Shown here: one piece after another, positions 1 to 39,432 of the stretch
Layout of the letters: the number at the start of each line of letters is the position of its first letter
Position numbering within the stretch: position 1 is the first letter of the stretch
Source of the DNA: a virus
Lineage: Duplodnaviria > Heunggongvirae > Uroviricota > Caudoviricetes
Length of the DNA stretch: 39,432 bases
IMG/VR virus record: IMGVR_UViG_2706794693_000007
Direction: 5' to 3' (one strand)
Translations under genes and position numbers: made by a program
Notes under the pieces: model-generated
The model's database searches: none
Seen by the model: the letters and a program-made list of their open reading frames with translations, nothing else
What the model was told of the DNA's origin: nothing

Positions 1-14
1 TCGGTTTACGGGAA
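1..14. other. Half of a gix-like recombination site (TCGGTTTACGGGAA), truncated by window start
   Basis: Exact reverse complement of the left half of the site at 1306-1331; matches the GGTTTnCnGGAA-type half-site of Gin/Hin/Cin crossover sites as recalled. Confidence 0.5.
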
Positions 15-353
15 ACGGTAAACAGGGCGGCGAATGCCCTGCCATCGGACGGCACCGCCGTTGCCGCGAACAGGCTGGCAAATGCCCACACAATTAATGG
101 TGTTCCCTTTGACGGGACGCAGGATATCACTATCTCATCAGGAACAGTAACCGCCATAAGACTGGGGTCGGTGACCGCACATATGCCCGGAACATGGGAA
201 AGCTGGGATCTGAATCTGGGGGGCGGCAATGTTCTTACCGGAATTAAAGTACAGGATGTCGGTAAGAATACGGCAGATAACGTCGGCGGCGTGTATTACC
301 GGCCGTTGCAGTATCTGTTAAATGGAGCATGGGTGACGGCTGCAAGTATATAA
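1..353 (+). CDS. Tail fibre alternative variable C-terminal segment (S'v-like), 5'-partial, silent in this orientation
   Basis: Frame open from position 2; first ~40 aa ([26 protein letters not shown]...[12 protein letters not shown]) match the minus-strand fibre after its gix site, then diverge; shared C-terminal RPLQ motif. Confidence 0.6.
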   Translation, partial: GLRETVNRAANALPSDGTAVAANRLANAHTINGVPFDGTQDITISSGTVTAIRLGSVTAHMPGTWESWDLNLGGGNVLTGIKVQDVGKNTADNVGGVYYRPLQYLLNGAWVTAASI

Positions 354-384
354 TGATATTCAGAAGGCCTTCCGGCCTTCTTTA

Positions 385-906
385 TTACTGTGGCTGCTCA
401 GGCCATTTAATGGCGTTAAATTCAGCTTCTGTTTTAATGGCGGGTAGTTCCATTTTCTTCACCTGACTGATGTATGCCATCCATTGGGTAAGTGCTGCTC
501 TGTCTTCATCGCTGATGGTGCCCAGTTGTAGCTCCGTTCTCCAGTCATTAATTTTTTCATATGCCTGATTAAGATATGACTGGCGCATTGCTTCCAGTTT
601 TCTTGCGTAGTTAACCGGAATACGGGAGATTATGCCATTATCAAACTTCCAGTTTCCTGAAATATCCGTGCCTTCAGGGAGTTCATCGACCTCAACCACA
701 GAAAACCCCGCAGGATACAGCGCCGAGGCGTCCTGTGATATTGAGCAGATAACGCCGCTGTCAGGTGTTATGCAAAGTTTATATTTTTTGGTGAATAATG
801 GCAGGGATTCGTAGAAATCCTTACCATCTTCACTCTGGAAATACTGAACATTATTACCATATGGCATATTTTCAGGATAATAACGGGTTATATTTTTTAG
901 TTCCAT
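385..906 (-). CDS. Tail fibre assembly protein (Tfa / Mu U-like chaperone)
   Basis: 173 aa; strong RBS AGGAGG upstream of ATG; lies directly downstream of the minus-strand fibre variable part; C-terminal ...KWPEQPQ resembles Tfa family. Confidence 0.75.
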   Translation of the reverse strand: MELKNITRYYPENMPYGNNVQYFQSEDGKDFYESLPLFTKKYKLCITPDSGVICSISQDASALYPAGFSVVEVDELPEGTDISGNWKFDNGIISRIPVNYARKLEAMRQSYLNQAYEKINDWRTELQLGTISDEDRAALTQWMAYISQVKKMELPAIKTEAEFNAIKWPEQPQ

Positions 907-960
907 AAAATCCTCCTGGAAATAAATCTGTTTTAAAATATATTATTTACTGACTATTTA

Positions 961-1537
961 TAACTGAGATACCGTAATCCATGTACCTCCGACTAATTTT
1001 TGCAGGGGTCTGAATGCTATAAAATCGTTTGAAGCATCAACTTTACTGTCAATCTGCAGGCCTGCCATAACATTACCGTACGCAGAGTAATATGCCCCAC
1101 CGTACATTACCTGCCTGTTCTCTGCTCCCAGCCTGATATCCTGGATATATCGGGAATCCGCATCCTGCTGTGTTATACCAGAAGTGATGTTTATGTCCTG
1201 CGTCCCGTCAAAGGGAACCCCATTAATATTTCTTGGGGTGGCGAGTCTATTCGCGGCAACGGCGGTGCCGTCCGATGGCAGAGCATTCGCCGCCCTGTTT
1301 ACCGTTTCCCGTAAACCGACGTTATCGATAAAAGCCCCTTTATCCGGAATGTCTGCGCCGTTCTGCTCCCTGCGCAGGTAACGGTTATCACCTTCGCTTT
1401 TGCTGTAAACATCCAGATTATTACGGGCGGTTCCCTTATTCTCCAGGTCGGCGAGATTCTGATCCTTCGCCAGGGCATTAACGTCAGCGGGACCAAGACT
1501 GTTTTTTGTGGCAAGCGTCCCCAGACCAAGATAACCA
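961..1537 (-). CDS. Tail fibre protein, 3' portion (end of constant part plus variable Sv part); 5' continues at 6894-7275 if the 71-bp overlap is joined
   Basis: Open frame from 1537 to stop at 961-963; translation ...[35 protein letters not shown]...[17 protein letters not shown]; first 71 nt identical to 6894-6964. Confidence 0.75.
1306..1331. other. gix/hix-like 26-bp crossover site (TTCCCGTAAACCGACGTTATCGATAA) inside the tail-fibre gene
   Basis: Two 12-bp imperfect inverted half-sites around a 2-bp core; lies at the constant/variable junction of the fibre gene. Confidence 0.55.
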
Positions 1538-1750
1538 NNNNNNNNNNNNNNNNNNNNNNNNNNNNNNNNNNNNNNNNNNNNNNNNNNNNNNNNNNNNNNN
1601 NNNNNNNNNNNNNNNNNNNNNNNNNNNNNNNNNNNNNNNNNNNNNNNNNNNNNNNNNNNNNNNNNNNNNNNNNNNNNNNNNNNNNNNNNNNNNNNNNNNN
1701 NNNNNNNNNNNNNNNNNNNNNNNNNNNNNNNNNNNNNNNNNNNNNNNNNN
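1538..1750. other. Run of 213 N (unresolved or masked); hides the 5' end of gin
   Basis: N characters in sequence. Confidence 0.95.
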
Positions 1751-2253
1751 GTGCAGGATGTGAGCTGTTTTTCGAAGACAGAATAAGCGGTAAGACAAGG
1801 GAGCGTCCCGGACTTAAACGCGCATTAAAGCGACTCCGGCCAGGGGATACCCTGCTGGTCTGGAAACTGGATCGCCTTGGACGCAGTATGCAGCACCTTG
1901 TCCTTTTAACAGAAGAACTCCGGCAACGCGGCGTTAACTTCCGCAGCATTACGGACAATATTGATACATCCACTCCCATGGGACGTTTCTTTTTCCATAT
2001 AATGGGCGCGCTGGCGGAAATGGAGCGGGAACTCATTATTGAACGTACACGCGCGGGTCTTGCTGCTGCCCGTGCTCAGGGGCGTCATGGCGGCAGACCT
2101 CAGAAACTGACAGAGAAAGAGCGGGAGCAAATCGCCCGTTTGCTGGCTAATGGCGAGTCCCGTAAACAAATCGCACTGATATTTGATATTGGCCTTTCCA
2201 CCCTTTATCGTTATTTTCCTGCCTCACCAGCTCCGTCACCAAAAGTACCGTGA
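1751..2253 (+). CDS. gin: Serine DNA invertase of the Gin/Hin/Cin/Pin family, N-terminal ~24 codons lost in the N-run
   Basis: Translation AGCELFFEDRISGKTRERPGLKRALKRLRPGDTLLVWKLDRLGRSMQHLV...MGRFFFHIMGALAEMERELIIERT...GGRPQKLT closely matches the Gin/Hin resolvase-type catalytic core and C-terminal HTH. Confidence 0.9.
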
Positions 2254-2338
2254 CGCTTTTTTGAATTTCCGCAAAACACATATTTTTCAGCGGTCGCTAT
2301 TCTGACTCTGTTTAATTCAGAAACAGGCAGAAAAGACG

Positions 2339-4393
2339 ATGTCAGACTCCAAGTGGAAAATGCTCTCCGCCATGCCCGGAGAGTTTTCAGTCAAGGTTGC
2401 CGGTGGCACGGTGGCATTTATTGAAAGCCCTTTCCGCCCTTCGGGTAATAAAGGGGGGATCACCTTCGCAGACTGCGTGATCCGCTTCAGCACGAAAGAG
2501 CCATTATGGGTAATGCCGGTATCCGGTAATCCCAGTGCAGAAATCACCAGTTCAGGCGTGACTGGCATCATTCCAATCACATCTGACGTGGCCGGAACGC
2601 TCACGCCCTCCGACTGGAATGCACCGGATAACGCCGGGCCTTCCGGTAGCACGAATGGCAGCAGTTCAGAGCCGGAATATTACTTTGTTGTCATTCTCGC
2701 GGGTCAGTCAAATGGCATGGCCTACGGCGAGGGGCTGCCGTTACCGGATTCGTTTGACCGCCCGGACCCACGCATTAAGCAACTGGCACGCCGCAGTACG
2801 GTAACGCCCAACGGTACGTCGTGTACATACAACGACATCATTCCGGCAGACCACTGCCTGCATGATGTTCAGGATATGAGCGGGATAAACCACCCGAAAG
2901 CTGATCTGGCAAAAGGCCAGTACGGGACTGTCGGTCAGGGGTTGCATATTGCCAAAAAACTGCTTCCCTATATCCCACAGAATGCCGGGATACTTCTGGT
3001 GCCCTGTTGTCGTGGCGGGTCAGCATTCACCACTGGAGCCGACGGCTCATTCAGTGAGGCCAGCGGTGCTTCCGCTGATTCTTCACGCTGGGGGGCCGGT
3101 AAACCTCTGTATCAGGACCTGGTAAGCCGCACCAAAGTCGCGCTGGCGAAAAACCCGAAAAACAAACTTCTGGCTGTGGTCTGGATGCAGGGAGAGGCAG
3201 ACCTTGCCTCAGGAAGCCAGCAGCATAATAGTTTATTCACGGCCATGGTTCAGCAGTTCAGAACTGACCTGGCTCCGCTTGCTGCGCAGTGCGTGAGTGG
3301 AAATGCCACCACGGTGCCGTGGATTTGCGGTGATACCACGTATTACTGGAAAAACGCTGGCACCGATAAATATGAGGCAGTATACGGTGGCTACAAAGGC
3401 AAGGAAGCACAGAAAATTTTCTTTGTACCGTTCCTGACGGATGAGAATGGACAGAGCACGCCAACGAATGCTCCGGCGGAAGACCCGGATATTGTGGCTG
3501 TCGGGTATTACGGTGCAGCATCCCGAACCCAGGGCAGTTTTGTTTCGACACAGCGTGACAGCCATTTCAGCTCATGGGCACGCAGGGGCGTCATTTCAGA
3601 CCGTCTGGCCTCAGCTATTATGCTCCATGCAGGGCGCACGGCTGAACTGATGCGTGGGCAGACCGTGACACCACCGGATGAGAAGCCGTCACCTGATACA
3701 CCATCAAAACCGTCCACGCCACCCGCAGACACCACGACGATGAGTACGCTATTTGCTTACCGGGCATCTGAGTCTGAAGGACGGTTGACACCACAGGGTT
3801 GGGCTGCCGGAGGTGGCAAGGCTCAAATCGTGGATGATGCCGGAGCCAGCGGGGGTAAGGCAATGAAACTGACCAAGGAAACAGGAAGAGCCCCCTGGTA
3901 CCTTGAGCATGATGCTGGTAATGGTGCGGACCTGCTGGGTAAAGGTGGTCTTGTCAGTTGTCGTTTTAAACTCGATGGCGCGCTTACGGCTAATCAGTAC
4001 GCACTGGCGCTGTACTGGCCGGTTTCTGCCCTGCCGCAAGGGGTTACTCTGGAAGGAAATGCCGGTCATAACCTGCTGGCATCGTTCTACGTACAGAGCG
4101 ATGCCACAGACCTTAACGTGATGTATCACAAAGGAAACACGGCGCAGAACACGAAGCTGGGGTCATTCGGCGCATTTAATAACGAATGGCATACGCTGGG
4201 CTTCCGTTTTGCCGGTAACAACAGTATTGAGGTGACGCCGGTCATTGATGGTAAGGACGGGACACCATTCATGCTGTCGCAGTCTCCGGTCGGCACGTTT
4301 ACGGCAGACAAGTTGCGCGTGACCGATATCACTAAAAATGCGACTTACCCGGTACTGATTGACAGTATCGTGGTGGAAGTGAATAACGCGTAA
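2339..4393 (+). CDS. SASA-family (sialate O-acetylesterase-like, NanS-p-like) SGNH hydrolase with N-terminal domain, Pro/Thr-rich linker and C-terminal lectin-like domain
   Basis: 684 aa; motifs YYFVVILAGQSNGMAYGEG (GQSN block) and AVVWMQGEADL (WxQGE(S/A)D block); candidate Asp/His at RDSHFS; linker TPPDEKPSPDTPSKPSTPPADTTT; start codon uncertain (weak RBS). Confidence 0.6.
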   Translation: MSDSKWKMLSAMPGEFSVKVAGGTVAFIESPFRPSGNKGGITFADCVIRFSTKEPLWVMPVSGNPSAEITSSGVTGIIPITSDVAGTLTPSDWNAPDNAGPSGSTNGSSSEPEYYFVVILAGQSNGMAYGEGLPLPDSFDRPDPRIKQLARRSTVTPNGTSCTYNDIIPADHCLHDVQDMSGINHPKADLAKGQYGTVGQGLHIAKKLLPYIPQNAGILLVPCCRGGSAFTTGADGSFSEASGASADSSRWGAGKPLYQDLVSRTKVALAKNPKNKLLAVVWMQGEADLASGSQQHNSLFTAMVQQFRTDLAPLAAQCVSGNATTVPWICGDTTYYWKNAGTDKYEAVYGGYKGKEAQKIFFVPFLTDENGQSTPTNAPAEDPDIVAVGYYGAASRTQGSFVSTQRDSHFSSWARRGVISDRLASAIMLHAGRTAELMRGQTVTPPDEKPSPDTPSKPSTPPADTTTMSTLFAYRASESEGRLTPQGWAAGGGKAQIVDDAGASGGKAMKLTKETGRAPWYLEHDAGNGADLLGKGGLVSCRFKLDGALTANQYALALYWPVSALPQGVTLEGNAGHNLLASFYVQSDATDLNVMYHKGNTAQNTKLGSFGAFNNEWHTLGFRFAGNNSIEVTPVIDGKDGTPFMLSQSPVGTFTADKLRVTDITKNATYPVLIDSIVVEVNNA

Positions 4394-4400
4394 GCAGGAT

Positions 4401-4442
4401 AAAAAAATGCCGCCGGTAAGGGAAAACAAGAAACCGGCGGCA
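4401..4442 (-). terminator. Candidate intrinsic terminator, oriented for the minus strand
   Basis: 9-bp GC-rich stem GCCGCCGGT/ACCGGCGGC with 15-nt loop; run of 7 T follows on the minus strand, only an A-rich tract on the plus strand. Confidence 0.4.
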
Positions 4443-4537
4443 AAAAGATCGTTATATCCAAAGCAAAAAATGCAGTGCACCTTTTTACCTAACAGATATT
4501 ACCGGTGTCAACACCATGTCAATAATTGGGAGGGATA

Positions 4538-4720
4538 ATGACATTTTTACAGCTTATTTTATTGTATTTCTGCACGGCAGTATGTGCGTTATATCTGGTG
4601 AGTGGTGGTTATAAGGCCATCAGAAATTATGTTCGCCGCAAAATTGAGGACGCAGCAGCTGAAAAACTCAGTAAAACAGCGCAGGTAACTCCGCTCCCAA
4701 AAGACCCGACCCAGCCCTGA
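4538..4720 (+). CDS. Small membrane protein (60 aa, one N-terminal TM helix, charged C-terminus), function unknown
   Basis: RBS GGGAGGG 3 nt before ATG at 4538; MTFLQLILLYFCTAVCALYLVSGGYKAIRNY... hydrophobic N-terminus. Confidence 0.5.
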   Translation: MTFLQLILLYFCTAVCALYLVSGGYKAIRNYVRRKIEDAAAEKLSKTAQVTPLPKDPTQP

Positions 4721-4755
4721 TTGCAGGGCTTTATTCCCGCATAAGGAGGATATAC

Positions 4756-5010
4756 ATGCCAGAAATTAAAGGCACCGTCACTGAAGACCTGGTAAAACAG
4801 GCACTGTATTCCGGTGAAGTAAATAAGTTGCTGAAAGCGCAGGTCCGCAAGGATTTTGAGGCACAAATCGACACTTACGTTGATGAAGTGCTGGCAAAAC
4901 TTATTGGGCCAGCAGTTGCGGCCAGTGATGCTGATAATGAGCCGAAAACCGACGCGCAGCCAGAGCAACCAGACCCGGCTCAGCCCGGAACTGACAGTAC
5001 CATGATGTAA
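4756..5010 (+). CDS. Hypothetical 84-aa acidic protein
   Basis: Strong RBS TAAGGAGG 7 nt before ATG; coding-like composition; hairpins downstream. Confidence 0.6.
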   Translation: MPEIKGTVTEDLVKQALYSGEVNKLLKAQVRKDFEAQIDTYVDEVLAKLIGPAVAASDADNEPKTDAQPEQPDPAQPGTDSTMM

Positions 5011-5177
5011 CAATACAAACCGGTGGTGTCCTCTGCCGGTTTGACACTAATGAAAACATCTTTGCCGCTATCCAGCCATATGTAATCGCTGGATAGTATT
5101 TCGTATTCAGAAATATAGCTGCTTATGGAGCAGTCAATCCTGCTTCCCCATCCGGGCAGGCAAATGAACCGGTATCA

Positions 5178-5471
5178 TTAGTCCGATTCACGCTTTTGTA
5201 GAATCGTTCCCAGAATGCTATACAGCTCATTAGCCTGTTGCTCCATCATTGAGACGGAGGCTATACGGTGCAAAGTGATTTCAGGAGGTGGCACACCTCC
5301 ATCTTCTTGCTGTGGAGGAAAAACATAAGATTTAATAAAAAAGTTGAAGCATATGAACTCTCCCGCACTCGAACTGTATTTGCAGGCATCTGAATAATCG
5401 GAAAAATAATCATTATAGATTTCCGCATTTTCAATCATTTTTCGATTTCTCGTCGTTACATGATTGTCCAT
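5178..5471 (-). CDS. Hypothetical 97-aa protein, convergent with the 84-aa gene
   Basis: RBS AAGAGG before ATG at 5471; AT-rich ORF with no recognisable motif. Confidence 0.5.
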   Translation of the reverse strand: MDNHVTTRNRKMIENAEIYNDYFSDYSDACKYSSSAGEFICFNFFIKSYVFPPQQEDGGVPPPEITLHRIASVSMMEQQANELYSILGTILQKRESD

Positions 5472-5594
5472 AGCAGCCTCTTACGCTGGCAATTAACCAA
5501 TTGACTTCTATAAATTAGTTGATTTGTTTGCTTTGCGGTATTCAAATGTACAATCATTCAGCACTTATGCGTTACAGCACCGTTTAAAATTAGT

Positions 5595-5680
5595 GATCAA
5601 ACTCATAAATTTTCGCTAATGACATTTCGTGTTATTTGTTGTATCAATTAAATAAATCAAATCGATCGTTTTTGTCGATC
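5595..5680. promoter_or_regulatory. Upstream regulatory region of com-mom with three GATC (Dam) sites
   Basis: GATC at 5595-5598, 5664-5667, 5677-5680, the last two inside near-direct repeats TCGATCG; Mu mom is known to be controlled through upstream Dam sites. Confidence 0.4.
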
Positions 5681-5727
5681 GATTGAGTGATAAAGATATC
5701 AACAACAAAGCAGGAGGTTATGCGGCC

Positions 5728-5928
5728 ATGTATCGAAACATACGGTGCCGACATTGTAACAAGCTACTGGCACGAGCCAGCTTCAGTTATCTGGAAGTTA
5801 AATGTCCGCGCTGTAAAACCCTCAATCAAATCACATCTCAGAGCGCCACAGAGCACCCCACATACACAAGGAAATCCTGTCGTGGGGAACAGAAAGCAAG
5901 TTACATCCCGTATCATCAGCACGCCTGA
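5728..5928 (+). CDS. com: Com-like zinc-finger translational activator of mom
   Basis: 66 aa; AGGAGG RBS 10 nt upstream; [14 protein letters not shown]...[10 protein letters not shown] with CxxC...CxxC; immediately precedes and overlaps mom as in Mu. Confidence 0.75.
5856..5887 (+). promoter_or_regulatory. Stem-loop sequestering the putative mom start codon (candidate Com target)
   Basis: CCCCAC (5856-5861) pairs with GTGGGG (5882-5887); the 20-nt loop contains AAGGA; GTG at 5882 is in the mom frame. Confidence 0.45.
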
Positions 5929-6619
5929 ACTTATTCACTATAACGACAATATCGTCGGTTATGGCTCCCGTGAGTTACGGGTTGAGACAATAAGTTGCTG
6001 GCTGGCCCGGCTGGTCGTCGTCAATAAACATTACAGCCATCGTTTCGTAAATAATTCCTACCTTCATCTGGGCATATTTTCAGAACGGGAGCTGGTTGGC
6101 GTAATGCAATGGGGTTATGCCCTTAATCCAAACAATGGTGCACGCGTCGTAACTGGCACGCAGAACCGCGAATATATGGAGCTTAACCGGTTATGGCTGC
6201 ATGACTGTATGCCGAGAAACTCCGAATCAAGGGCAATCAGTTACGCGCTCAAACTAATCAGACAACTTTATCCGCAGGTGCAGTGGGTTCAGTCGTTTGC
6301 AGATGAGCGTTGTGGCTGTCTTGGTGTCGTGTACCAGGCAAGCAATTTTGATTATGTAGGCAGTCATGAAACAACATTCTATGAACTTGATGGCGAGTGG
6401 TATCACGAGATTTGCAAGAATGCAATCAAACGAGGAGGACAGCGAGGTGAACATCTGCGGGCTAATATCGACAGAGCCAGTGTTCATAAATTCCGTCAGT
6501 TTCGTTACATCCGGTTTCTGGACAAGAGAGCCAGAAAACGCCTTAACACAAAGCTATTCAAAGTCCAGCCTTACCCAAAACCACAAACAGTTAAAACTGG
6601 TTTGAAAGAGAGTGAATGA
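5882..6619 (+). CDS. mom: Mom-like DNA adenine modification protein; start assigned to GTG 5882, uncertain
   Basis: Long ORF in the frame overlapping the 3' end of com; com-mom architecture, size about 245 aa; no ATG between com and residue ~130 so a non-ATG start is required. Confidence 0.65.
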
Positions 6620-6664
6620 ACGCTTAAAAACTCATTCTAAAACTCAAAAGAAAAGCGCCGATTT

Positions 6665-6681
6665 AGTATCAAATAAGTTGC
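6665..6681 (+). repeat. Prophage end-like repeat (GTATCAAATAAGTTGCG) just downstream of mom
   Basis: 17-nt near-match to GTATCAAATGAGTTGCC at 38755-38771 and to repeats at 38817 and 38902; preceded by GCCGATTT as at 38767. Confidence 0.45.
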
Positions 6682-6691
6682 GTATCGGCGT

Positions 6692-6893
6692 NNNNNNNNN
6701 NNNNNNNNNNNNNNNNNNNNNNNNNNNNNNNNNNNNNNNNNNNNNNNNNNNNNNNNNNNNNNNNNNNNNNNNNNNNNNNNNNNNNNNNNNNNNNNNNNNN
6801 NNNNNNNNNNNNNNNNNNNNNNNNNNNNNNNNNNNNNNNNNNNNNNNNNNNNNNNNNNNNNNNNNNNNNNNNNNNNNNNNNNNNNNNNNNNNN
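6692..6893. other. Run of 202 N (unresolved or masked)
   Basis: N characters in sequence. Confidence 0.95.
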
Positions 6894-7275
6894 TCGCCAG
6901 GGCATTAACGTCAGCGGGACCAAGACTGTTTTTTGTGGCAAGCGTCCCCAGACCAAGATAACCACGGGCCAGACGCTGGGCCTCCGCACCGGCATCAGCA
7001 ATTTCTTTCAGGTTATTTTTCCGGGAAAAGGCATTCGCAGCGATAATGGCTTTAATGGACAGCGTAAGCTGGTTTAACTGCGCCTTATCCGGCTGAATAC
7101 TGGCTTCAGCCAGAATATTCAGCAGTTCGGCCTGGAGAATATTCAGCCAGTCCTGACCAATCCAGCTGATACCTTTTTGTCCGTCACCTTCGGTAAACCA
7201 GGTGGTGGTATTACTCTGCGCCGGTGCCAGCGCAGGCATATTCGCCACGCCGGAATTATTATCAACATGAAACAT
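6894..7275 (-). CDS. Tail fibre protein, N-terminal constant part (Sc), 3' end runs into N-run
   Basis: ATG at 7275 overlapping upstream stop; MFHVDNNSGVANMPALAPAQ...[24 protein letters not shown]; last 71 nt identical to 1467-1537. Confidence 0.75.
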
Positions 7276-7835
7276 TAAATAGTCTCCTCTTCATGGCTGT
7301 TTGCATAAACGTAAATAAACGTCTGCCATGCAGGCTTATAACGGTTCAGAATACATTCCAGCGCACCGCCTTCATAAATACGCAGCGGCGTGAGAATATC
7401 ATCCAGCACATTCATATTCCGGTAGCCGGTTTCACTGTTAATCGTGACAATACTGACCCACTGCGAATCCGGTGAGGGCTGAATGTCAATCTGATAACCA
7501 AACTCCGCCGCAAACCGGATATAAAATTCACGGTTCAGCGAGGGCTTCATCCGGTATTTATTTCCGGCATAACGCTGTCGCTCCGTGAGGGTGGCTCCGG
7601 CCATATCACACTCGGGAAGCCCGAGATAACGCTCCCAGTCTTCCAGCAGCAGGCGCGACGTGTCAGGGAAACGCTCGGCAAGCAGCTGTTTACCCGTCCA
7701 GGATACACGCGCTGTCGAATGACTGAGGCCCAGACATAATGATGCCAGTACGGATGACGGACGCTTGTCCCATGCCAGCCCGTCAGGCAGTAACTGCAAC
7801 AGGGCGCGCTGATGCGGGGTCAGGGTTACAGCCAT
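7275..7835 (-). CDS. Tail/baseplate protein (Mu gp48-like, P2 gpI-like)
   Basis: 186 aa, position between baseplate J-like gene and tail fibre; overlapping stop/start. Confidence 0.7.
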   Translation of the reverse strand: MAVTLTPHQRALLQLLPDGLAWDKRPSSVLASLCLGLSHSTARVSWTGKQLLAERFPDTSRLLLEDWERYLGLPECDMAGATLTERQRYAGNKYRMKPSLNREFYIRFAAEFGYQIDIQPSPDSQWVSIVTINSETGYRNMNVLDDILTPLRIYEGGALECILNRYKPAWQTFIYVYANSHEEETI

Positions 7836-8908
7836 GTGATTTCTCCTACCGTCAGCAGCTCACTGTCTCCCGCCTGAACTGACGTCAGCGGACTGCGCAC
7901 TTCAAAATCCTCCAGATTTTTCACCCCTGCCACCGCCCGCCAGAAAGACGACGGCAGAACCAGACCGCCGGGCCGGGATTCGTTATACAACAGGTCGGTC
8001 AGCGCCTGTTTTACGGCCGCCTGATTCTCCGGTGTTTTCGGGATGATCCTGATGCTGAAGGGCACCGGCTTATTGGTCAGTTTAAACACGGTCACCGTCG
8101 GCCCCAGAGGCTGTCCGACAGGCTGGCCGGTCGCCGGATCATCATGACTGCGGATATAATCCGCCACCCGCTGAACATCACCGTCACCGGGGAAAATATC
8201 CGGGTTATTATCCTGAACAAACGTTACCCCCACGCTGCCCGCCTGCGGCCATTCCGGGCGGCACCATGCCCGCGTCACGCCCGGCACTTCACGCGCCCAG
8301 CGTTCAAAATCATACTGCGTGCCGCCGGACGGTGGATTCTGCACCCGGAAAACCAGACGGGAAAGCAGCTCCGGCACGGTTTCCACATCCGCACCACCGG
8401 TGATCCCCGTTCCGGTCACCGTGGCCGTCTGGTTGATCCCCGCCTGCGGTGTGATAAATGTCAGTTTTGTCCCTGCCGGGGCATTCCCCGCACGACCGGC
8501 ACTTTCGGCTTCCACACTGACATTCAGCGTACCGGCCTTACCGGTCAGGGAGGTGGTGATACGGTAAACCACGCCATCACTTCGCTGGAGAAGCACACCT
8601 TCCTTGATCCCCGCATCCGTGGTCAGCATCAGCTGAACCGGCCCGTCCCCCCGAGAGGCAGGCTTACGCATGACGCCCCAGAATGCACAGTGTTTCAGCA
8701 GTTCGGCTTCATCGGCTTCGGTCGGGATGATCTGACGCGCAATCCAGGCCAGATGCTCATGCTCCTGAGCAGATAACCCTGCCTGAGCGTAAGCAATGGC
8801 ATTCAGGGTGGTTTCATTCACACCCGGCTGCGAGCCGGGCAGGCGCTGGCTGATATCCTGCTGTGTCTGCGTGATTAACTGTGCCAGCGGTAAAGGCTGA
8901 TAAGGCAT
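7826..8908 (-). CDS. Baseplate J-like protein (Mu gp47-like)
   Basis: 360 aa, synteny in baseplate cluster. Confidence 0.75.
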   Translation of the reverse strand: MPYQPLPLAQLITQTQQDISQRLPGSQPGVNETTLNAIAYAQAGLSAQEHEHLAWIARQIIPTEADEAELLKHCAFWGVMRKPASRGDGPVQLMLTTDAGIKEGVLLQRSDGVVYRITTSLTGKAGTLNVSVEAESAGRAGNAPAGTKLTFITPQAGINQTATVTGTGITGGADVETVPELLSRLVFRVQNPPSGGTQYDFERWAREVPGVTRAWCRPEWPQAGSVGVTFVQDNNPDIFPGDGDVQRVADYIRSHDDPATGQPVGQPLGPTVTVFKLTNKPVPFSIRIIPKTPENQAAVKQALTDLLYNESRPGGLVLPSSFWRAVAGVKNLEDFEVRSPLTSVQAGDSELLTVGEITWL

Positions 8909-9345
8909 TACTCCCCCTTAAGATCAGCATAAAAAATCATGGGCCTCACTGAACCATCAGGCAGGGTTATGCGCACCGAAAGCGCCAGCCGCGCGTGTCC
9001 CACACGTTCTGCATGACAGACCACGGATGACGCCACGCCATCCTGACTGAGCCAGCCCAGCGCCTCATCCGCGTAAGCACGGGCACGGCTTATCACCGAG
9101 GCCAGCGTTTTTTCCCGGCTGAGAAGCCACAGACGGGAGCCAATGGGGCGCGGGCGAAAACTGTCTCCCCACCATCCCCGGCGGTCGCGCGTACCGTCAG
9201 GGATTTCATCCGATGCCAGCGCCCGGCGGTCAGTAAACAGCGAAATCAGAACGGCCGTCAGCAGACTGTCATCCGTCAGCAAGTCGGCACCGTTCAGTTG
9301 CAGCGAACCGCACCCCTGATCCCATACAATTGCAATATCAGCCAT
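8908..9345 (-). CDS. Baseplate wedge protein (GPW/gp25-like, Mu gp46-like); start moved to ATG 9345
   Basis: GGAG RBS before MADIAIVWDQG...; upstream part of the 193-aa ORF overlaps the preceding gene. Confidence 0.65.
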   Translation of the reverse strand: MADIAIVWDQGCGSLQLNGADLLTDDSLLTAVLISLFTDRRALASDEIPDGTRDRRGWWGDSFRPRPIGSRLWLLSREKTLASVISRARAYADEALGWLSQDGVASSVVCHAERVGHARLALSVRITLPDGSVRPMIFYADLKGE

Positions 9346-9952
9346 TCTCCGGCGCTCCTGTCTTACTGCCTTTGCCGTTATCCTGATGCACATGGCCGGA
9401 ATAGGTGATCCCGGCAATAACGGCATCAGACATCGTGAACAGCCCGTCTGATTTACCTGTACCATCAAGCACGAAATTACCCTTAACATGCAGGTTTTTA
9501 TCCACCGTCACATTGCCCGTAAAGGTGGCCTCCGGCGTATCCACCCGCATCCCCTCATCGGCGTAAATCTCCAGCATTTTGCATGTCACAATAATGCGAC
9601 CATCCTTTGTTAACCGTATCCGGTGCCCCTCATGGTGATACACCCCCGTATCTCCGGCTGTGAGTCCGGTCGGGCGGCTGCGCCGGTCTTCCACCACAAG
9701 CACCACAGTCTGATCCCGCTGTCCGCCCAGACAGGCAAAAAAGGTTTCCGCACCCGGCAGGGGAACGCTGATCTGCCCGTACTGCTGGGGACGCTCCACA
9801 TCATCAAAGGTTTCGCCGTCCATGCCGGTGAGCTGCACATTCTGCATTTTCAGTTCGTCATGTGTGCCGGTCAGAACGCCCCGGCCAAACAACAGGCGAA
9901 TACCGCGCGTTACCGGGGCAATCAGGCGGCTGAACACTTCATCATTCATCAA
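9338..9952 (-). CDS. Baseplate assembly / central spike protein (gpV-like, Mu gp45-like)
   Basis: 204 aa, synteny. Confidence 0.65.
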   Translation of the reverse strand: MMNDEVFSRLIAPVTRGIRLLFGRGVLTGTHDELKMQNVQLTGMDGETFDDVERPQQYGQISVPLPGAETFFACLGGQRDQTVVLVVEDRRSRPTGLTAGDTGVYHHEGHRIRLTKDGRIIVTCKMLEIYADEGMRVDTPEATFTGNVTVDKNLHVKGNFVLDGTGKSDGLFTMSDAVIAGITYSGHVHQDNGKGSKTGAPENG

Positions 9953-11066
9953 AGCTGATCCCCTGTTTTTTCATCTGCTGGCGAATAAAGGCATCAACAT
10001 CGTCACCGGAACCACCCCGGCCCTTACTGTCCGGCTCTGCCGGAACGATAAAGCCGTCACGCGGTGCCAGTACCAGCCGGGTGACTTCCCCGTTATGTTC
10101 ATCAAGTAAAAACTCCACCTGACAGACCAGCAGTTCAGTCTGTTCTATACCGAAACGCAGGGCTGAAACACCGGTCAGCAGATTGACATCCCATAACCGG
10201 CCATCATCCCGGAACCAGCCACGCACGGTGGCAGAAAACCGTTCTGAACGGGCAATCGCACGGCGCATTTCACGCAGGGCACGCTGCCGTGCACCGGTGG
10301 TGTCTGTCTGTTGATCGGCGAGGATGATTTTCGACCGGTAGCGGCCGATCTGCTCATCACTGATGACGCCCACAGGTGCTGCCAGACGGGCGGCGGATTC
10401 GCTGTCTCCCCGTTTGCCACCACCGCGCCCGTGTCCCCGGACACGGTATTCGCTGTATCGTCCTCGCCAGTCCGTGTTGTAATCGGCATCAAGCAGGTTA
10501 TCTCCCAGCACCAGTCTGTCCGTCTGCTGGCTTCCTGCCTGGGTGAACACCAGATCGCCGTCAGCATTACTGGTCACCAGCACCCCGCGATGCCGGGCAG
10601 CACGGGTCAGCGCATCCGCCACGGTTTCTGAGTTTTCCAGCGTAAAAGAGCTGAAGGGGCGTGCAGCCGTGTCGTCGTTAACCTGCCAGCGCACGGCTAT
10701 CCCGAAGGGCGCACATAAATCTGCGGCAATCTGTGCCAGCGTCCGGTTGCGCCACTGGCTGCCGGGATGGATGGCGGCACAGTCCACCAGGTCGCCGGTT
10801 TTATCCCGACCGCTGATGCTGATCTGATGACGGGTTGCACTGATCCGCTGACTGACCTGATCCAGCCAGCCACTGATGACCGTCTGCCCGTTAATTCTGA
10901 GCGTCAGGGACTGACCGGTTCGCAGGGCTGAGGGGATGCGCTCACCGGGCAGCATCAGCCCCAGTTCAAACGACCCGGCCAGATGCTCCAGCGAGCGACG
11001 GACGCTGACCGTCAGCCAGCCGGAAAAAATACTGCCACCGATATACAGTTCAATCCTGCTGCTCAC
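9942..11066 (-). CDS. Tail protein of the P2 gpD / Mu P family (baseplate hub)
   Basis: 374 aa, synteny downstream of DNA circulation protein. Confidence 0.7.
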   Translation of the reverse strand: MSSRIELYIGGSIFSGWLTVSVRRSLEHLAGSFELGLMLPGERIPSALRTGQSLTLRINGQTVISGWLDQVSQRISATRHQISISGRDKTGDLVDCAAIHPGSQWRNRTLAQIAADLCAPFGIAVRWQVNDDTAARPFSSFTLENSETVADALTRAARHRGVLVTSNADGDLVFTQAGSQQTDRLVLGDNLLDADYNTDWRGRYSEYRVRGHGRGGGKRGDSESAARLAAPVGVISDEQIGRYRSKIILADQQTDTTGARQRALREMRRAIARSERFSATVRGWFRDDGRLWDVNLLTGVSALRFGIEQTELLVCQVEFLLDEHNGEVTRLVLAPRDGFIVPAEPDSKGRGGSGDDVDAFIRQQMKKQGISFDE

Positions 11067-12408
11067 TGATCACCTCCACGCTGCGGCCACCCGGAACAAA
11101 AACCGGATCGGGGATATTGTTTCTGCGGACAAAATACTGCCAGCGACTGCTGTTGCCGGTGGCACGGTACAGCGTGACCAGTGCCGGTTCGGTGGTGCGA
11201 ACCATGACCTGAAAAGCACCGGGAAGATGCACGCTCCGTGTGGTTAAATCTTCTGTCAGCGCAAGCCCTGCATCACGTAATGCAAGGGCAGTCCCGGTAT
11301 AGCCCTGTGCGGACAGATCCAGCACCTGTTGTTCCATGGCATCGCTCAAATCCCGGTTGATACGCTGCACATCAGCAGAACTTTCCAGCCAGGCCAGTCC
11401 GCCCGAACGGTCAGTATCCTGAACGTGCGTCGTATTCTGCCGGATGACCTGATCCAGCAGTTTTCCGAGCGTCTGTGCCTGCGACACCAGGGTTGCACTC
11501 TGCATCACGCTCCGCAGCAGACGGATATTTTTCTGTGCCGCAGGCGTCAGGCCAATCAGGCGCTGTGGATCATCCTGTTCGCTGAGGGTGTAACGCAGGG
11601 AGGAAAGTGTGCGGTACAGCTGCGGCATGGCCTGCTCTGCCATGCTGTCACGGTTTGTGGTCAGGCTGCCGGACGGCGTTCCGGCTTTTCCGGTCAGAGA
11701 CAGGGAAGGATCGCCGGGCAGCCCGGTCAGCACGGCAAACATTCCGGCCAGCGATTCAGCCATGCGACGGGGCGCATTAATCAGGGCGGCGGCATTGCCT
11801 TTCAGGGCAGTAAAACTGGCCGTAAAGGCACTGATATCCTGCACAATCCCCATCCCCGAAACGGCATTCTCCAGTGCATCAATCTTATCGCTGATGGTGT
11901 CGGTCATGGCCTGTACATCATGCAGACCGTCTGAAATCACCGTCCAGCCGTCTGAAAGCGTGTTAAACAGCTGATTCATTGCTGAGCCGCTTTTCTGCTC
12001 CAGCGCAGCTGCCGTATCTTCTGCCACCGCAGGGGCGGTATCGTCACTGGCGGGGATCACGTTGATCGTGAACTCAACCGTTCCCTGCTCGCTGGCGTTA
12101 TAACGGCTTTCAAAGCTGTTTATCAGCACGTTTAACGTGCCGTAATCCGGGTGCATCAGTTCACCGGCACCGGGTGCACGCAGCGCATCACGCAGGCGGC
12201 TTCGCTGTGTCTGAAGATCGTCTCCGGTCACCAGAACCGTGAATGTGAACTCCGGGAGTTTTGGCCCCAGATCATCCGCACCGCCGCTTTCACGCAGTGG
12301 GTATTCACGGCGCACAATGTTACGTCCGCCCCGTTCCCGCTGCTCCTGATAAACCAGGAACGGTACGCCACGAAAGGAGCCACGCCCCGGCGTGTCAGTA
12401 GAGGCCAT
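11050..12408 (-). CDS. DNA circulation protein (Mu N-like tail protein)
   Basis: 452 aa, follows tape measure gene. Confidence 0.7.
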   Translation of the reverse strand: MASTDTPGRGSFRGVPFLVYQEQRERGGRNIVRREYPLRESGGADDLGPKLPEFTFTVLVTGDDLQTQRSRLRDALRAPGAGELMHPDYGTLNVLINSFESRYNASEQGTVEFTINVIPASDDTAPAVAEDTAAALEQKSGSAMNQLFNTLSDGWTVISDGLHDVQAMTDTISDKIDALENAVSGMGIVQDISAFTASFTALKGNAAALINAPRRMAESLAGMFAVLTGLPGDPSLSLTGKAGTPSGSLTTNRDSMAEQAMPQLYRTLSSLRYTLSEQDDPQRLIGLTPAAQKNIRLLRSVMQSATLVSQAQTLGKLLDQVIRQNTTHVQDTDRSGGLAWLESSADVQRINRDLSDAMEQQVLDLSAQGYTGTALALRDAGLALTEDLTTRSVHLPGAFQVMVRTTEPALVTLYRATGNSSRWQYFVRRNNIPDPVFVPGGRSVEVISEQQD

Positions 12409-14452
12409 AGTTCCCTCCGTTCCAGACGTTCACATCCAGGCCATGCTGTGCGGTATCATCCACATCAATACTGCGCGCCCGCCAGCCTTCAGGGGCAACA
12501 AGCTCCACCCGTGCGGCGGTTTTCGCGGTGGCCTGTCCGCCGTTTTCGTCACTGCCGCCACGCAGTTTCTGCCAGGCCTGCGTCAGCCAGCCCCCCAGAT
12601 AATCACCGAGATAGCTGCCCACCGTGGAACCAATGGCAACCCCGACCGGACCGGCAGCCGCCCCCAGCGCGCCACCGGCGATACTTCCGGCAAGGGAACC
12701 CACGGCACCGGCTTTATCGGCTGCACTGGCGCTGCTGTCCAGCAGTACAGGAGCCGCCATGGCACCGGCCCACAGGGCACCACCACCCAGCCGACCGGCA
12801 CCACGGAACAGCCCGGCAAAACGCCCCAGCCCCATGCGGTTTCCGGCCGCCGTTAGCAGACCACCGGCACGGCTCATCATACGACCGAAGAAGCCCTGTT
12901 TACCGGCACTCTCCGCCAGTTGCTCACCGGCAGTCACGACGGTCGTGACACCCCGTCCACGTCCGGGGCCGCGTTTTTTACGGCCGCGCACGGTTTTGCC
13001 GTCACCGCTGACCACCACATCCCCGCCACCTGAGGCCAGGCCACCCGCAGGCCAATTGGTGACCAGCACGGGCTGAACGGCAGCCGGATTTACCCCGGTA
13101 AGGAAATTCAGGAACCGGCCAGCGCGTCCGGGCTGCGTTCCCGGTACAGTGGTCTGCGGTTTGCGGAAGGGCGACGTCAGCACGGAGGTCATCGCCATGC
13201 CATAGCGTAAGGGGGTTGCGCCGAGACGTAATGCCCCCGTCCCCGCAAACCTGAGCACCTTCAGCGCACGGGAGGCGAGATACATATACATCAGGTACTT
13301 TGCGGCGGTCTGCGCACCCTGACCAATGCGATCCAGCGCATCGCCATAACCGGCGTCGCGCAGTGCCTGAAGCGTTTCCCTGACTTTCTGAATGACCCGG
13401 TAAAAGCCGGTCGCAGCGTCTCTGGCATACTCAAATCCCTGATTCAGGGCTGAGGCCGTCTGTGTGGCCAGCTTATCCTGTAAGCCGCTTTTCTGTGCCG
13501 CATCAGCATAATCCAGAAAGCCTTTCAGGCTCTTTTTCAGGCTGTCAAACGGTCCCTTTGCCATCACCTCGCGGGCAAATCCGTCCCAGACATCGCCCAT
13601 CATGGACGTCATTCCCGTCCAGGAATTCATGGCGTTTTTCTGGGCACCTTTTGCCTGTTCGGCCATCACCTGAAATAACAGGCGAATGCTGTCCGGTCCC
13701 AGTTTTCCTTTCTCGCCTTTCTCACGGATGATCTTCTGGTTTACACCCAGCTTATCGGCCAGCAACTGGTAAACGTTAATCCCGTATCCGGTCAGAATAT
13801 TGGCGTCCGCTGCCTGGATACTCTGGCGGGCAAACATCTGTTTGAGTTGCAGGGACGCACCCTGTGCATCTGACAGTGACCAGCCGTGATAGCCGCCCTG
13901 ATCCTGAAGCATGGTAATAAAGCGACGGGCTTCCCTGTCACTCATACCGAACCCGCGACTGGAGGCGTATTCCTGCATAACCCCCGCCAGCCCCCAGGTG
14001 GTGTCTTTGGCGTTCTGTACCGCCCAGGCTTTCACTGCTTCCGTTTTTGCCGTATCGCCATGATTAATGGCGTTGAGACGCAGAATATAGTTCTCCATCT
14101 CTGCGGCCGGGCGGATAAAGGCTTTATTAAACCCGTAGACCGCAGCCCCTCCCGCCAGCATCCCGTAAAGGTTGCTTATCCGCCCGATGGTGCCGGTAAT
14201 GCTGCCCTGAAGGCGGTCAAAATCTGACGTCACCGTGCGGATACTGCCACGAACACCGGCAAGCGTTCGCTGCATACGGGAGCCGACAAGTTCTGTCTCC
14301 TGACCGGCACGACGTGCTGCATTTCCAAGACCACCCAGCCCCGTCCTGCCGGAACGGGAGAATGCCCCCAGCTCCTGTGACCACTGGCGGGATTTGGCAG
14401 AAATATTGCCGAGTAAATCGACAATCAGGGAGGCTTTCAGGTTTTTTGCCAT
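12395..14452 (-). CDS. Tail tape measure protein
   Basis: 685 aa, Gly/Ala-rich C-terminal half, position after tail tube/chaperone genes. Confidence 0.85.
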   Translation of the reverse strand: MAKNLKASLIVDLLGNISAKSRQWSQELGAFSRSGRTGLGGLGNAARRAGQETELVGSRMQRTLAGVRGSIRTVTSDFDRLQGSITGTIGRISNLYGMLAGGAAVYGFNKAFIRPAAEMENYILRLNAINHGDTAKTEAVKAWAVQNAKDTTWGLAGVMQEYASSRGFGMSDREARRFITMLQDQGGYHGWSLSDAQGASLQLKQMFARQSIQAADANILTGYGINVYQLLADKLGVNQKIIREKGEKGKLGPDSIRLLFQVMAEQAKGAQKNAMNSWTGMTSMMGDVWDGFAREVMAKGPFDSLKKSLKGFLDYADAAQKSGLQDKLATQTASALNQGFEYARDAATGFYRVIQKVRETLQALRDAGYGDALDRIGQGAQTAAKYLMYMYLASRALKVLRFAGTGALRLGATPLRYGMAMTSVLTSPFRKPQTTVPGTQPGRAGRFLNFLTGVNPAAVQPVLVTNWPAGGLASGGGDVVVSGDGKTVRGRKKRGPGRGRGVTTVVTAGEQLAESAGKQGFFGRMMSRAGGLLTAAGNRMGLGRFAGLFRGAGRLGGGALWAGAMAAPVLLDSSASAADKAGAVGSLAGSIAGGALGAAAGPVGVAIGSTVGSYLGDYLGGWLTQAWQKLRGGSDENGGQATAKTAARVELVAPEGWRARSIDVDDTAQHGLDVNVWNGGNYGLY

Positions 14453-14455
14453 GGG

Positions 14456-14656
14456 TTACTGCTTCGTTCTGAGAATTTTTTCGGTCTGTCGGCAGTGCCG
14501 GTAAAGCTGCGATAAGGGGAGGTTAAGCGCCCACTCCGGGCCGCTTTTTGTCACCATCCCCAGCACAATTGCGGCTTCTTCAATCTGATCCCGGCACTGC
14601 ATCTGGTCGCCCCCGTTCAGCGACCAGCTTTCCGGCCATCGCGGAATCAAGCAGGC
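14456..14656 (-). CDS. Out-of-frame extension of the tail assembly chaperone (candidate programmed frameshift product, G/GT-like)
   Basis: Frame opens only 2 codons upstream of the chaperone overlap, has no ATG, overlaps the last 25 codons of the chaperone ORF in the +1 frame and stops 3 nt before the tape measure start. Confidence 0.4.
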   Translation of the reverse strand, partial: ACLIPRWPESWSLNGGDQMQCRDQIEEAAIVLGMVTKSGPEWALNLPLSQLYRHCRQTEKILRTKQ

Positions 14657-14909
14657 TTACTGCCGCCATCAGTCGGGAGAGATCGCGCTCGCTGAGCTGT
14701 CCTATCTGACGCGGAGACAATGGCCCCTCAATCTGGCCGACAGCGGCAATCTGACGGCGCAGCAGCGCAATGCCGCGCAGTGCCGGTGAGGCCACAAGAA
14801 CCGGACCGTTTCGGGTTTCCATAAGACGCTCGGCCTCGCTCTCCGCATCAATGCTGTCTTTTGCCGTCAGTTCGCGGAAGGTGACGCGGTATTCACGGGA
14901 TTCCCCGAA
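14580..14909 (-). CDS. Tail assembly chaperone (Mu gp41-like), 5' end hidden in N-run
   Basis: Open frame after the N-run ending ...LVAERGRPDAVPGSD; position between tube and tape measure. Confidence 0.5.
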   Translation of the reverse strand, partial: FGESREYRVTFRELTAKDSIDAESEAERLMETRNGPVLVASPALRGIALLRRQIAAVGQIEGPLSPRQIGQLSERDLSRLMAAVSLLDSAMAGKLVAERGRPDAVPGSD

Positions 14910-15161
14910 NNNNNNNNNNNNNNNNNNNNNNNNNNNNNNNNNNNNNNNNNNNNNNNNNNNNNNNNNNNNNNNNNNNNNNNNNNNNNNNNNNNNNNNNNNN
15001 NNNNNNNNNNNNNNNNNNNNNNNNNNNNNNNNNNNNNNNNNNNNNNNNNNNNNNNNNNNNNNNNNNNNNNNNNNNNNNNNNNNNNNNNNNNNNNNNNNNN
15101 NNNNNNNNNNNNNNNNNNNNNNNNNNNNNNNNNNNNNNNNNNNNNNNNNNNNNNNNNNNNN
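14910..15161. other. Run of 252 N (unresolved or masked) spanning the end of the tail tube gene and the start of the chaperone gene
   Basis: N characters in sequence. Confidence 0.95.
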
Positions 15162-21349: not shown

Positions 21350-21470
21350 ATTGCCTCCGCATAAAGGATGAATATAAAATAAACAGGCGGTCAGTGTACG
21401 CTTAACTGGTAAAGTCGGTGCCTGCCTCCGGGTGGATCATGTATGCGGGTTCGACCCCCGCCACTGACCG

Positions 21471-38754: not shown

Positions 38755-38913
38755 GTATCAAATGAGTTGCCGATTTTATAATAAATGACTAATTATTGCA
38801 CAATCGGTATCAAATAGACCTTATCCGCACATCTAGCCATCACCTGTTTTATTTCAGTATCTTACAGGTGATTTCACCTCCTTTCACTAAACCCCTTGTC
38901 GGTATCAAATGAT
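38755..38913. repeat. Prophage end region with three direct copies of a GTATCAAAT(G/A) motif (candidate transposase binding sites)
   Basis: Copies at 38755-38766, 38817-38827, 38902-38913; sequence ends ...TTCA at 38916. Confidence 0.5.
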
Positions 38914-39237
38914 TCACCTGGTTATATGTCGCCAGTCGATACCTTCCAGCAGCATCGCCAGCTGCGCCTGTGTAAGGAACACTTTGCCATCACGGGCTGA
39001 CGGCCAGGCGAAGCGCCCACGCTCCAGCCGTTTGGTCAGGAGGCACAGTCCGTCACTGGTGGACCACAGCAGTTTAACCTGACTGCCGCTGCGGCCCCGG
39101 AAAATGAAAACATGGCCGGACATGGGATCGTCTTTCAGCGCCGTCTGTACTTTCGCAGCCAGGCCGTTGAAGCCATTTCTCATATCGGTGATACCGGCAA
39201 CCAGCCAAATTTTGATCCCGGAAGGTAACGGGATCAT
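38914..39237 (-). CDS. tnpB: IS66-family TnpB (Orf2), probably with altered C-terminus at the prophage junction
   Basis: MIPLPSGIKIWLVAGITDMRNGFNGLAAKVQ...LEGIDWR characteristic of IS66 Orf2; stop codon lies in the phage-end TTCA. Confidence 0.8.
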   Translation of the reverse strand: MIPLPSGIKIWLVAGITDMRNGFNGLAAKVQTALKDDPMSGHVFIFRGRSGSQVKLLWSTSDGLCLLTKRLERGRFAWPSARDGKVFLTQAQLAMLLEGIDWRHITR

Positions 39238-39432
39238 CGCTTCAGTTCCTGTATCAGCAGAGTCAGGAGCTTTTCGCTGACATTGCCATTGAAGCGGAGC
39301 GTCCCGTGCCGGAACGTTACCTCACAGCTGATACTGAGGGTTTTCGGGTCCTCTGCGAGCGATTCTGGCTGTTCGGCAGCTGCATCGAGAGTCACAGGAA
39401 GTAGCTGGGGGCTCTCTGAAGAAGGTAATAGC
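38917..39432 (-). mobile_element. IS66-family insertion sequence fragment (tnpA-tnpB), lacking its transposase gene on this side
   Basis: IS66 orf1/orf2 pair with ATGA overlap; expected third gene replaced by prophage sequence. Confidence 0.7.
39234..39432 (-). CDS. tnpA: IS66-family TnpA (Orf1), 3' part only
   Basis: Open frame ending ...NGNVSEKLLTLLIQELKR with stop overlapping the tnpB start as ATGA. Confidence 0.6.
   Translation of the reverse strand, partial: LLPSSESPQLLPVTLDAAAEQPESLAEDPKTLSISCEVTFRHGTLRFNGNVSEKLLTLLIQELKR

Follow-up and report, generated by a model that had tools for sequence, protein, structure and literature searches.

The gin-to-mom layout in the window, the whole stretch of 39,432 nt that was analysed, is not a real feature: the placement of this block is an assembly error, non-random, and an artefact of the ordinary sort at a familiar type of switch. 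The window is a scaffold of four contigs (A, 1–1537; B, 1751–6691; C, 6894–14909; D, 15162–39432), and it is most probable (about 85%) that it is a short-read scaffold in which contig B was misplaced and flipped between the overlapping contigs A and C, the misjoin having been caused at a real Gin inversion switch. The switch itself, a compact tail-fibre switch of the Mu type, is widespread in E. coli Mu-like prophages, and is real and belongs to a well-known type.

The anomaly is bounded by N-runs, and was flagged in the sequence-only reading by a 71-bp duplicate. Window positions 1467–1537 and 6894–6964 were found to be identical at 71 of 71 positions on the same strand, with each copy adjoining an N-run, as had been described; because Ns start at 1538 and stop at 6893, the identity is not extendable. 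A chance origin for a 71-nt match within 39 kb can effectively be dismissed, its probability being about 4^-71 for each pair of positions. Joining the two copies yields a single in-frame fibre open reading frame, as that reading had claimed, with a length of 296 codons (7275..6894 plus 1466..961) in place of the 295 aa given there, and the 296-aa gene is annotated intact in finished genomes (L004, 8838–9728; L005, 8838–9728). The break had been placed at the boundary between the fibre constant part and the invertible segment, and lies instead 147–218 nt within the constant part; the segment was found to be window 1–1319, and therefore takes in the variable part of the rebuilt frame as well as the sequence below 961.

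The proposal that the gin-to-mom contig sits at the wrong place and in the wrong orientation was borne out by a finished genome, E. coli DLI.5a, whose prophage copy 2 reads as reverse-complemented B, 147 nt, A and C. In this copy, window 1–1537 is matched at 100.000%, window 1751–6691 is found reversed at 99.96% and 147 nt to the left of position 1, and the sequence from window 6894 onward overlaps A by exactly 71 nt. With contig B removed the sequence is intact in finished genomes, and across the A/C join STEC2018-553 is identical at 401 of 401 positions. The block 1751–6691 (gin, esterase, small genes, com and mom) does lie on the strand opposite to the late genes in the window, as had been noted. 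At all independent loci carrying both markers (20/20), gin to mom are co-oriented with the late genes and lie beyond the invertible segment, in line with the misplacement reading, and the layout of the window was found at none of them (0/20). In 20 loci the phage right terminus, 56 nt beyond window 6691, has the same sequence; 19 of these loci extend past it, and each runs on into a host flank of its own, never into fibre sequence.

Comparison with Mu (AF083977) confirmed that gin, com and mom lie beyond the invertible segment near the right end there, and the order is shared: on one strand, late genes, fibre constant part, invertible segment, gin, com, mom and right end. In window orientation, the true order would be host, phage right end, reverse-complemented B, 147 nt, A, C and D, and gin-com-mom would therefore lie beyond the invertible segment on the late-gene strand, as in Mu. 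Coordinates are collected in the table below.

Table. Features of the switch, the misplaced contig and the scaffold gaps, in window coordinates
Feature	Position	Strand	Remarks
Half gix-like site at scaffold start	1..14		Core TC (1–2), inner half-site GGTTTACGGGAA (3–14); outer half absent
Sv_alt, 3' part of alternative fibre C-terminus	1..353	+	Expressed in state 2 only, giving a 293-aa fibre
Tail fibre assembly chaperone, 173 aa	385..906	-	Pfam Caudo_TAP, E = 4.8e-19; sole chaperone of the segment
Sv, variable C-terminal fibre part	958..1319	-	State 1 (the state of the scaffold); includes the stop codon of the rebuilt fibre frame, 958–960
Complete 26-bp gix-like site	1306..1331		TTCCCGTAAACC-GA-CGTTATCGATAA; Sv/Sc junction, core 1318–1319
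Fibre constant part (Sc), 218 nt on contig A	1320..1537	-	Final 71 nt (1467–1537) are the first duplicate copy
N-run 1 (213)	1538..1750		False A/B join; in state-2 genomes just 147 nt from core to window 1751
gin, codons 25–190	1751..2253	+	First 24 codons absent from scaffold; Resolvase and HTH_7
SASA esterase/DUF6645 protein	2339–4393	+	Misplaced contig B
DUF1378 protein	4538–4720	+	Misplaced contig B
DUF826 protein	4756–5010	+	Misplaced contig B
Hypothetical gene	5178–5438	-	Misplaced contig B
com	5728–5928	+	Misplaced contig B
mom	5882–6619	+	Misplaced contig B
Start of prophage right-end region	6620..6691	+	Contig B ends 56 nt before terminus ...CGCCGCGCTATA (20 loci)
N-run 2 (202)	6692..6893		False join, phage right-end region to fibre gene
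Fibre gene 5' part (Sc)	6894..7275	-	6894–6964 is the second copy of the 71-nt duplicate
N-run 3 (252)	14910..15161		Ordinary gap, placed correctly; flanks 242 nt apart in 11/11 spanning relatives
Prophage left terminus, then host flank	38900..39432		Terminus ends 38926; flank within IS66-family tnpB (PF05717 TnpB_IS66), scaffold end

The 1.32-kb segment (window 1–1319) is bounded by two inverted 26-bp gix-like sites of 12-2-12 form, which share one asymmetric core dinucleotide (GA/TC). The outer half-site missing at the window start is TTCCTGAAAACC in L005, on the gin side. Mu sites for comparison were read from AF083977; Mu gix is TTCCTGTAAACC-GA-GGTTTTGGATAA, and the Mu sites have the same 12-2-12 form and GA/TC core, with inner half-sites identical to those here at 11/12 positions, whereas the outer half-sites match at only 8/12. 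The recombinase gene lies directly outside the segment and is transcribed away from it at every finished locus, a placement obscured in the window by the misjoin and the absent 147 nt. The full Gin (from HH35) is a serine recombinase by its Pfam matches (Resolvase, E = 1.6e-51; HTH_7, E = 4.9e-15) and shares 74% identity with Mu Gin across 184 aa; its N-terminal motif YIRVSTNDQ, which we take to be the location of the catalytic serine, falls in the absent 147 nt. As in Mu, inversion swaps the fibre C-terminus: the adjacent Gin flips window 1–1319, and the flip exchanges the final ~110 residues of the tail fibre.

The segment departs from that of Mu in several respects, being 1.32 kb long against about 3.06 kb in Mu, with fibres of 296 or 293 aa against 504 aa. 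Within it, the single Caudo_TAP gene is co-oriented with Sv and none follows Sv_alt, whereas Mu has U and U'. A chaperone for each C-terminus is a trait of the Mu segment that is dispensable for the inversion mechanism. About 3.4 kb of extra genes (SASA esterase/DUF6645, DUF1378, DUF826 and one hypothetical) also lie between gin and com, unlike in Mu. The serine invertase gene likewise adjoins a segment bounded by inverted 26-bp sites in P1 (Cin/C), e14 (Pin/P) and Salmonella (Hin/H), and these switches have two alternative expression states; unlike P1 or lambdoid phages, the present prophage has a Mu-like backbone (MuA, MuB, Mor, Com, Mom).

Both orientations of the segment were found in finished genomes, colinearity switching exactly at the GA core. 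By junction probes, 5 finished genomes had the state-1 junction at full length and at least 99% identity, and 17 had the state-2 junction. A marker census, in which state calls are marker distances, gave state 2 at 19 loci and state 1 at 6 loci; a 40-mer state diagnostic was dropped, as a single SNP lay behind it and L006 and L026 were misclassified. NCCP 13983 and FORC_029 are in opposite states and differ by 1 bp in chromosome length, and some finished genomes (DLI.5a, TOE17) carry two prophage copies in opposite states. In HH35 and 12 other finished genomes, window 1..6691 is matched as one place at 99.8–99.9%, A and B adjoining there as in state 2 (in HH35, locus L002, window 1–1336 corresponds to 12001–13335 and the fibre CDS to 11472–12353). 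The adjacency of A to gin, in window orientation, is thus the natural junction of the other state of the segment, which had gone unnoticed in the sequence-only reading.

Because of the inversion switch, the right end of A has two legitimate neighbours. In state 1 it joins the fibre constant part, giving the A/C overlap, and in state 2 it joins the 5' end of gin, giving A followed by B in the order and orientation of the window. We infer that each of the two junctions was represented in the reads, whether because the culture was a mixture of both states or because two copies of the prophage differed in state, and that the scaffolder then strung both neighbours in a row after A; the 71-nt duplicate would be the A/C overlap left unmerged. 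An exact duplicate at contig ends beside N-runs resembles unmerged contig-end overlaps in short-read scaffolds, as the deletion of an interposed contig to restore a gene intact in finished genomes, together with estimated N-run lengths, resembles short-read misjoins. The case differs from the usual unmerged overlap in that A and C are not scaffold neighbours, a third contig lying between them, and from the usual misjoin at invertible DNA in that the break lies 147–218 nt from the switch and not at it.

Several observations count against a misjoin caused at the switch. N-run 1 has 213 nt, against a state-2 read-pair distance of about -71, the latter because A already extends 218 nt beyond the core; the B-to-C join is without any natural link; the starts of contigs B and C each lie precisely 147 nt beyond a core; and contig A stops at a core on its left end and reads through a core on its right end, unlike a simple mixed-state de Bruijn graph. 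The values 71, 147, 213 and 202 gave no convincing match as assembler-parameter values. In favour of the misjoin, another draft contig (L042) follows a chimeric path through the same invertible segment; its value as proof of a mixed culture is weakened, as its two gin-side arms differ and two gene copies are equally possible.

The first alternative is a generic scaffolding or gap-filling artefact unrelated to inversion. Its cause might be unreliable mate-pair links, a repeat in another part of the genome or the extension of A into the wrong gap during gap filling, and the resemblance to state 2 would be due to chance. Such an origin would accommodate the position of the A/C break outside the crossover site, the gap lengths of 213 and 202, which match no natural distance, and the further break in the assembly at gap 3, where the sequence is unremarkable. 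It is nevertheless unlikely, since B stands to A, in side and orientation, exactly as in state 2 (roughly 1/10 of possible placements, a rough estimate), the first base of the scaffold is the first base of a crossover core, and contigs B and C share one starting distance from a core, 147 nt. A mosaic or repeat boundary at 1537 was ruled out in relatives (across the join, L004 is identical at 401/401 positions and L007 at 99.5%), and no further repeated contig end was found within the window, both of which argue against it as well.

It is very unlikely that the duplicate represents a separate second copy of the fibre gene, for instance from a second related prophage, whose contig end was drawn into the scaffold. 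Two prophage copies in opposite states do occur together in both DLI.5a and TOE17, and the gin-side arms of L042 differ by one indel and one SNP, suggesting two gene copies there. Against this, the scaffold crosses the left phage terminus without a break and enters one specific host flank, and it likewise crosses 7681 and 27115, where the second copy of DLI.5a is deleted; A is 100% identical to sequence that runs on into C in finished genomes; and with a second copy the layout would remain an artefact.

The prospect of a genuine rearrangement is slighter still. In this alternative the gin-to-mom block truly lies in reverse orientation, with a partial duplicate of the fibre constant region on one side and the remaining fibre gene on the other, for example through aberrant recombination, and the N-runs would hide real junctions. 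Two points favour it: the phage terminus has GTATCAAAAAAA-TC, by inspection weakly like a gix half-site and core, and the length of N-run 2 (202) differs by just 1 nt from the sum of the absent nucleotides of the right end (56) and of Sc (147), a near-coincidence that was also counted against the preferred misjoin at the switch. N-run lengths are estimates, however, because N-run 3 has 252 N for 242 nt in 11 relatives, a difference that also ruled out N-runs as equal-length masks over real sequence. The layout, as given above, is absent from the independent loci, and the 71-mer is never duplicated elsewhere, being single-copy in 28 of the 28 loci that have it. The rearrangement would have split both the fibre gene and gin, set a transposon terminus against internal phage DNA, and required a link across gap 1, of 213 nt, from the fibre constant part to gin. 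No inversion at the available sites yields such a link: pairing the terminal pseudo-site with the gin-side site would give B-G-C in place of G-B-C, the pseudo-site and the fibre-side site are directly and not inversely oriented, and neither pairing yields the observed A-B-C order. Least likely of all is a version in which the source prophage was truly rearranged, for example by Gin acting aberrantly at a secondary site close to the terminus, so that the inverted gin-to-mom block came to adjoin a partial duplicate of the fibre constant region and both the fibre gene and gin were split.

Gene maps drawn from the scaffold call for caution, because the misjoin and the bases absent from the scaffold would make the fibre gene look split, gin truncated and the gin-mom module inverted, all of them falsely. 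A 'wrong' contig beside an invertible segment can also signal that the material sequenced contained both states of the switch.

The prophage is of the Mu-like transposable type, carrying HTH_Tnp_Mu_1, Mu-transpos_C, Phage-MuB_C, Mor, Com and Mom. A junction-specific 60-mer had no match in viral_contigs, and the 37-mer at the segment ends had none in genome_contigs; a metagenome scan returned 9 related contigs, none of them the source. The same IS66 insertion is found in the finished genome CP176614.1. A 452-aa protein failed as a lineage-specific marker, since 2,729 blocks of the collection contain it.

The block running from gin to mom (contig B) is best read as a contig that was misplaced and flipped in the scaffold, the reading preferred from sequence alone, which was supported by gene order in finished genomes and by a census of the fetched loci. 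The 71-nt duplicate on which it was based was real, with positions 1467-1537 identical to 6894-6964 on the same strand and an N-run bounding each copy, and no other contig end was repeated anywhere in the window. Joining 7275..6894 to 1466..961 produced the predicted single open frame, with a length of 296 codons where 295 had been counted, and the 71-mer was present in one copy in 28 of the 28 loci containing it. Since gap 3 measured 242 nt in all 11 spanning relatives, versus 252 N in the scaffold, the N-runs were taken as estimated gap sizes and not as masked real sequence. This third gap, over the junction of the tail tube gene and gp41, was correctly placed and had no flanking repeat.

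Contigs, gaps and switch features of the window
Feature	Position	Strand	Detail
Contig A	1-1537
N-run 1	1538-1750		213 nt
Contig B	1751-6691
N-run 2	6692-6893		202 nt
Contig C	6894-14909
N-run 3	14910-15161		252 nt
Contig D	15162-39432
Alternative fibre C-terminus	1-353	plus	within segment
Single chaperone gene (Caudo_TAP)	385-906	minus	within segment
Other fibre C-terminus	958-1319	minus	within segment
26-bp site	1306-1331		TTCCCGTAAACC-GA-CGTTATCGATAA, core 1318-1319

The prophage was present in finished E. coli genomes at 99-100% identity. In copy 2 of DLI.5a, contig A matched at 100.000%, contig B lay reversed (99.96%) on the left of contig A, 147 nt away from window position 1, and the sequence from 6894 onward continued contig A with an overlap of exactly 71 nt. 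STEC2018-553 had the same order, with an A/C join identical at 401/401 positions, and the fibre annotated as one 296-aa gene. The Mu record bore out the expected order of late genes, fibre constant part, G segment, gin, com and mom, on one strand throughout. All fetched loci were scored by sequence markers, and among those with the fibre constant part as well as gin, the latter was co-oriented with the late genes in 20/20, the segment being in one state in 17 and in the other in 3. The window's layout was found in 0 of these 20, and a genuine rearrangement in the source was given a chance of only a few per cent. The phage right terminus (...CGCCGCGCTATA) lay exactly 56 nt past window 6691 in 20 loci, and the 19 extending beyond it each continued into different host sequence, never into fibre sequence.

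The fibre switch at this locus is genuine, though of the ordinary Mu Gin/gix type. Base-level comparison showed that the two arrangements diverge at the GA core of the 26-bp site; HH35 had the same inner half and core, then GGTTTTCAGGAA, then gin. The gix sites in the Mu record were TTATCCAAAACC-TC-GGTTTACAGGAA and TTCCTGTAAACC-GA-GGTTTTGGATAA. A second, inverted site (TC-GGTTTACGGGAA) has the first base of its core at window position 1, and the two cores thus delimit 1-1319 as a 1.32-kb invertible segment. Window 1-6691 matched as an unbroken stretch (99.8-99.9%) in HH35 and in 12 further finished genomes, so A beside B, as oriented, is also a natural arrangement. Opposite states were found in NCCP 13983 and FORC_029, whose chromosome lengths are 1 bp apart, and nine N-free metagenome contigs were each in one state or the other. 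Junction probes matching at full length and at least 99% identity detected the window's state in 5 finished genomes against 17 for the other, a set to which NCCP 13983 and FORC_029 belong; the commoner state turns the chaperone gene antisense to the late operon. The lone chaperone is co-oriented only with the variable C-terminus of the scaffold's state, despite the two alternative C-termini, whereas in Mu each state has a chaperone. Five related prophages (L021, L024, L029, L032, L034) encoded a 303-aa fibre without gin or a second variable part, and look like derivatives fixed in a single state.

The right end of A has two legitimate neighbours, the fibre constant part in the scaffold's state, giving the A/C overlap, and gin in the flipped state, giving the order A then B. 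If the reads included both junctions, a scaffolder could have placed both neighbours after A, and the A/C overlap would then have stayed unmerged. Such reads could stem from a culture in which both switch states coexisted, or from a pair of oppositely switched prophage copies like those of DLI.5a and TOE17. That the scaffold starts exactly on the crossover core is consistent with a branch of the assembly graph there. In an N-free draft genome contig (AIFX01000077.1, 1-1700), the segment lay between gin 5' sequence on both sides, indicating that chimeric paths do occur at this switch; its inverted 191-nt arms are not identical, with one indel that puts gin out of frame and one SNP that falls in the outer half-site, so the contig may reflect either chimeric assembly or the presence of two copies of gin.

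Several numbers sat less easily with this account. The A/C break lay 147-218 nt outside the crossover, with no mosaic boundary there in the relatives compared, the starts of B and C each lay exactly 147 nt outside a core, and N-run 1 had 213 nt versus about -71 nt implied by the flipped-state link. The length of N-run 2 was within 1 nt of 56 (missing phage right end) plus 147 (missing fibre constant part), a match treated as coincidence. No assembler parameter was matched to the break offsets and N-run lengths, and no natural rearrangement constructed fitted the numbers; inversions via a half-site near the phage terminus that weakly resembles gix were rejected, as they yield a different gene order.

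Profile searches upheld the earlier gene calls for block B, identifying a resolvase-family recombinase that lacks its first 24 codons, a fusion of a SASA carbohydrate esterase with DUF6645, and separate genes for DUF1378, DUF826, Com and Mom. The recombinase shares 74% identity with Mu Gin. Mu has no counterpart of the ~3.4 kb between gin and com (window 2339-5471), where the esterase/DUF6645 protein (684 aa), DUF1378, DUF826 and a minus-strand hypothetical gene lie. A RefSeq 'tRNA-OTHER' in HH35 (L003, 3226-3305) corresponds to window ~21390-21470, where ARAGORN and Rfam gave no match in the window. The prophage left end (window 38914-39432) was inserted in an IS66-family tnpB, cutting it to 107 aa, and the same fusion protein was found in 110 blocks of the collection, one of them the finished chromosome CP176614.1, with the longest contig only 20-50 kb in 108 of the 110, which suggests a much-sequenced clonal lineage.
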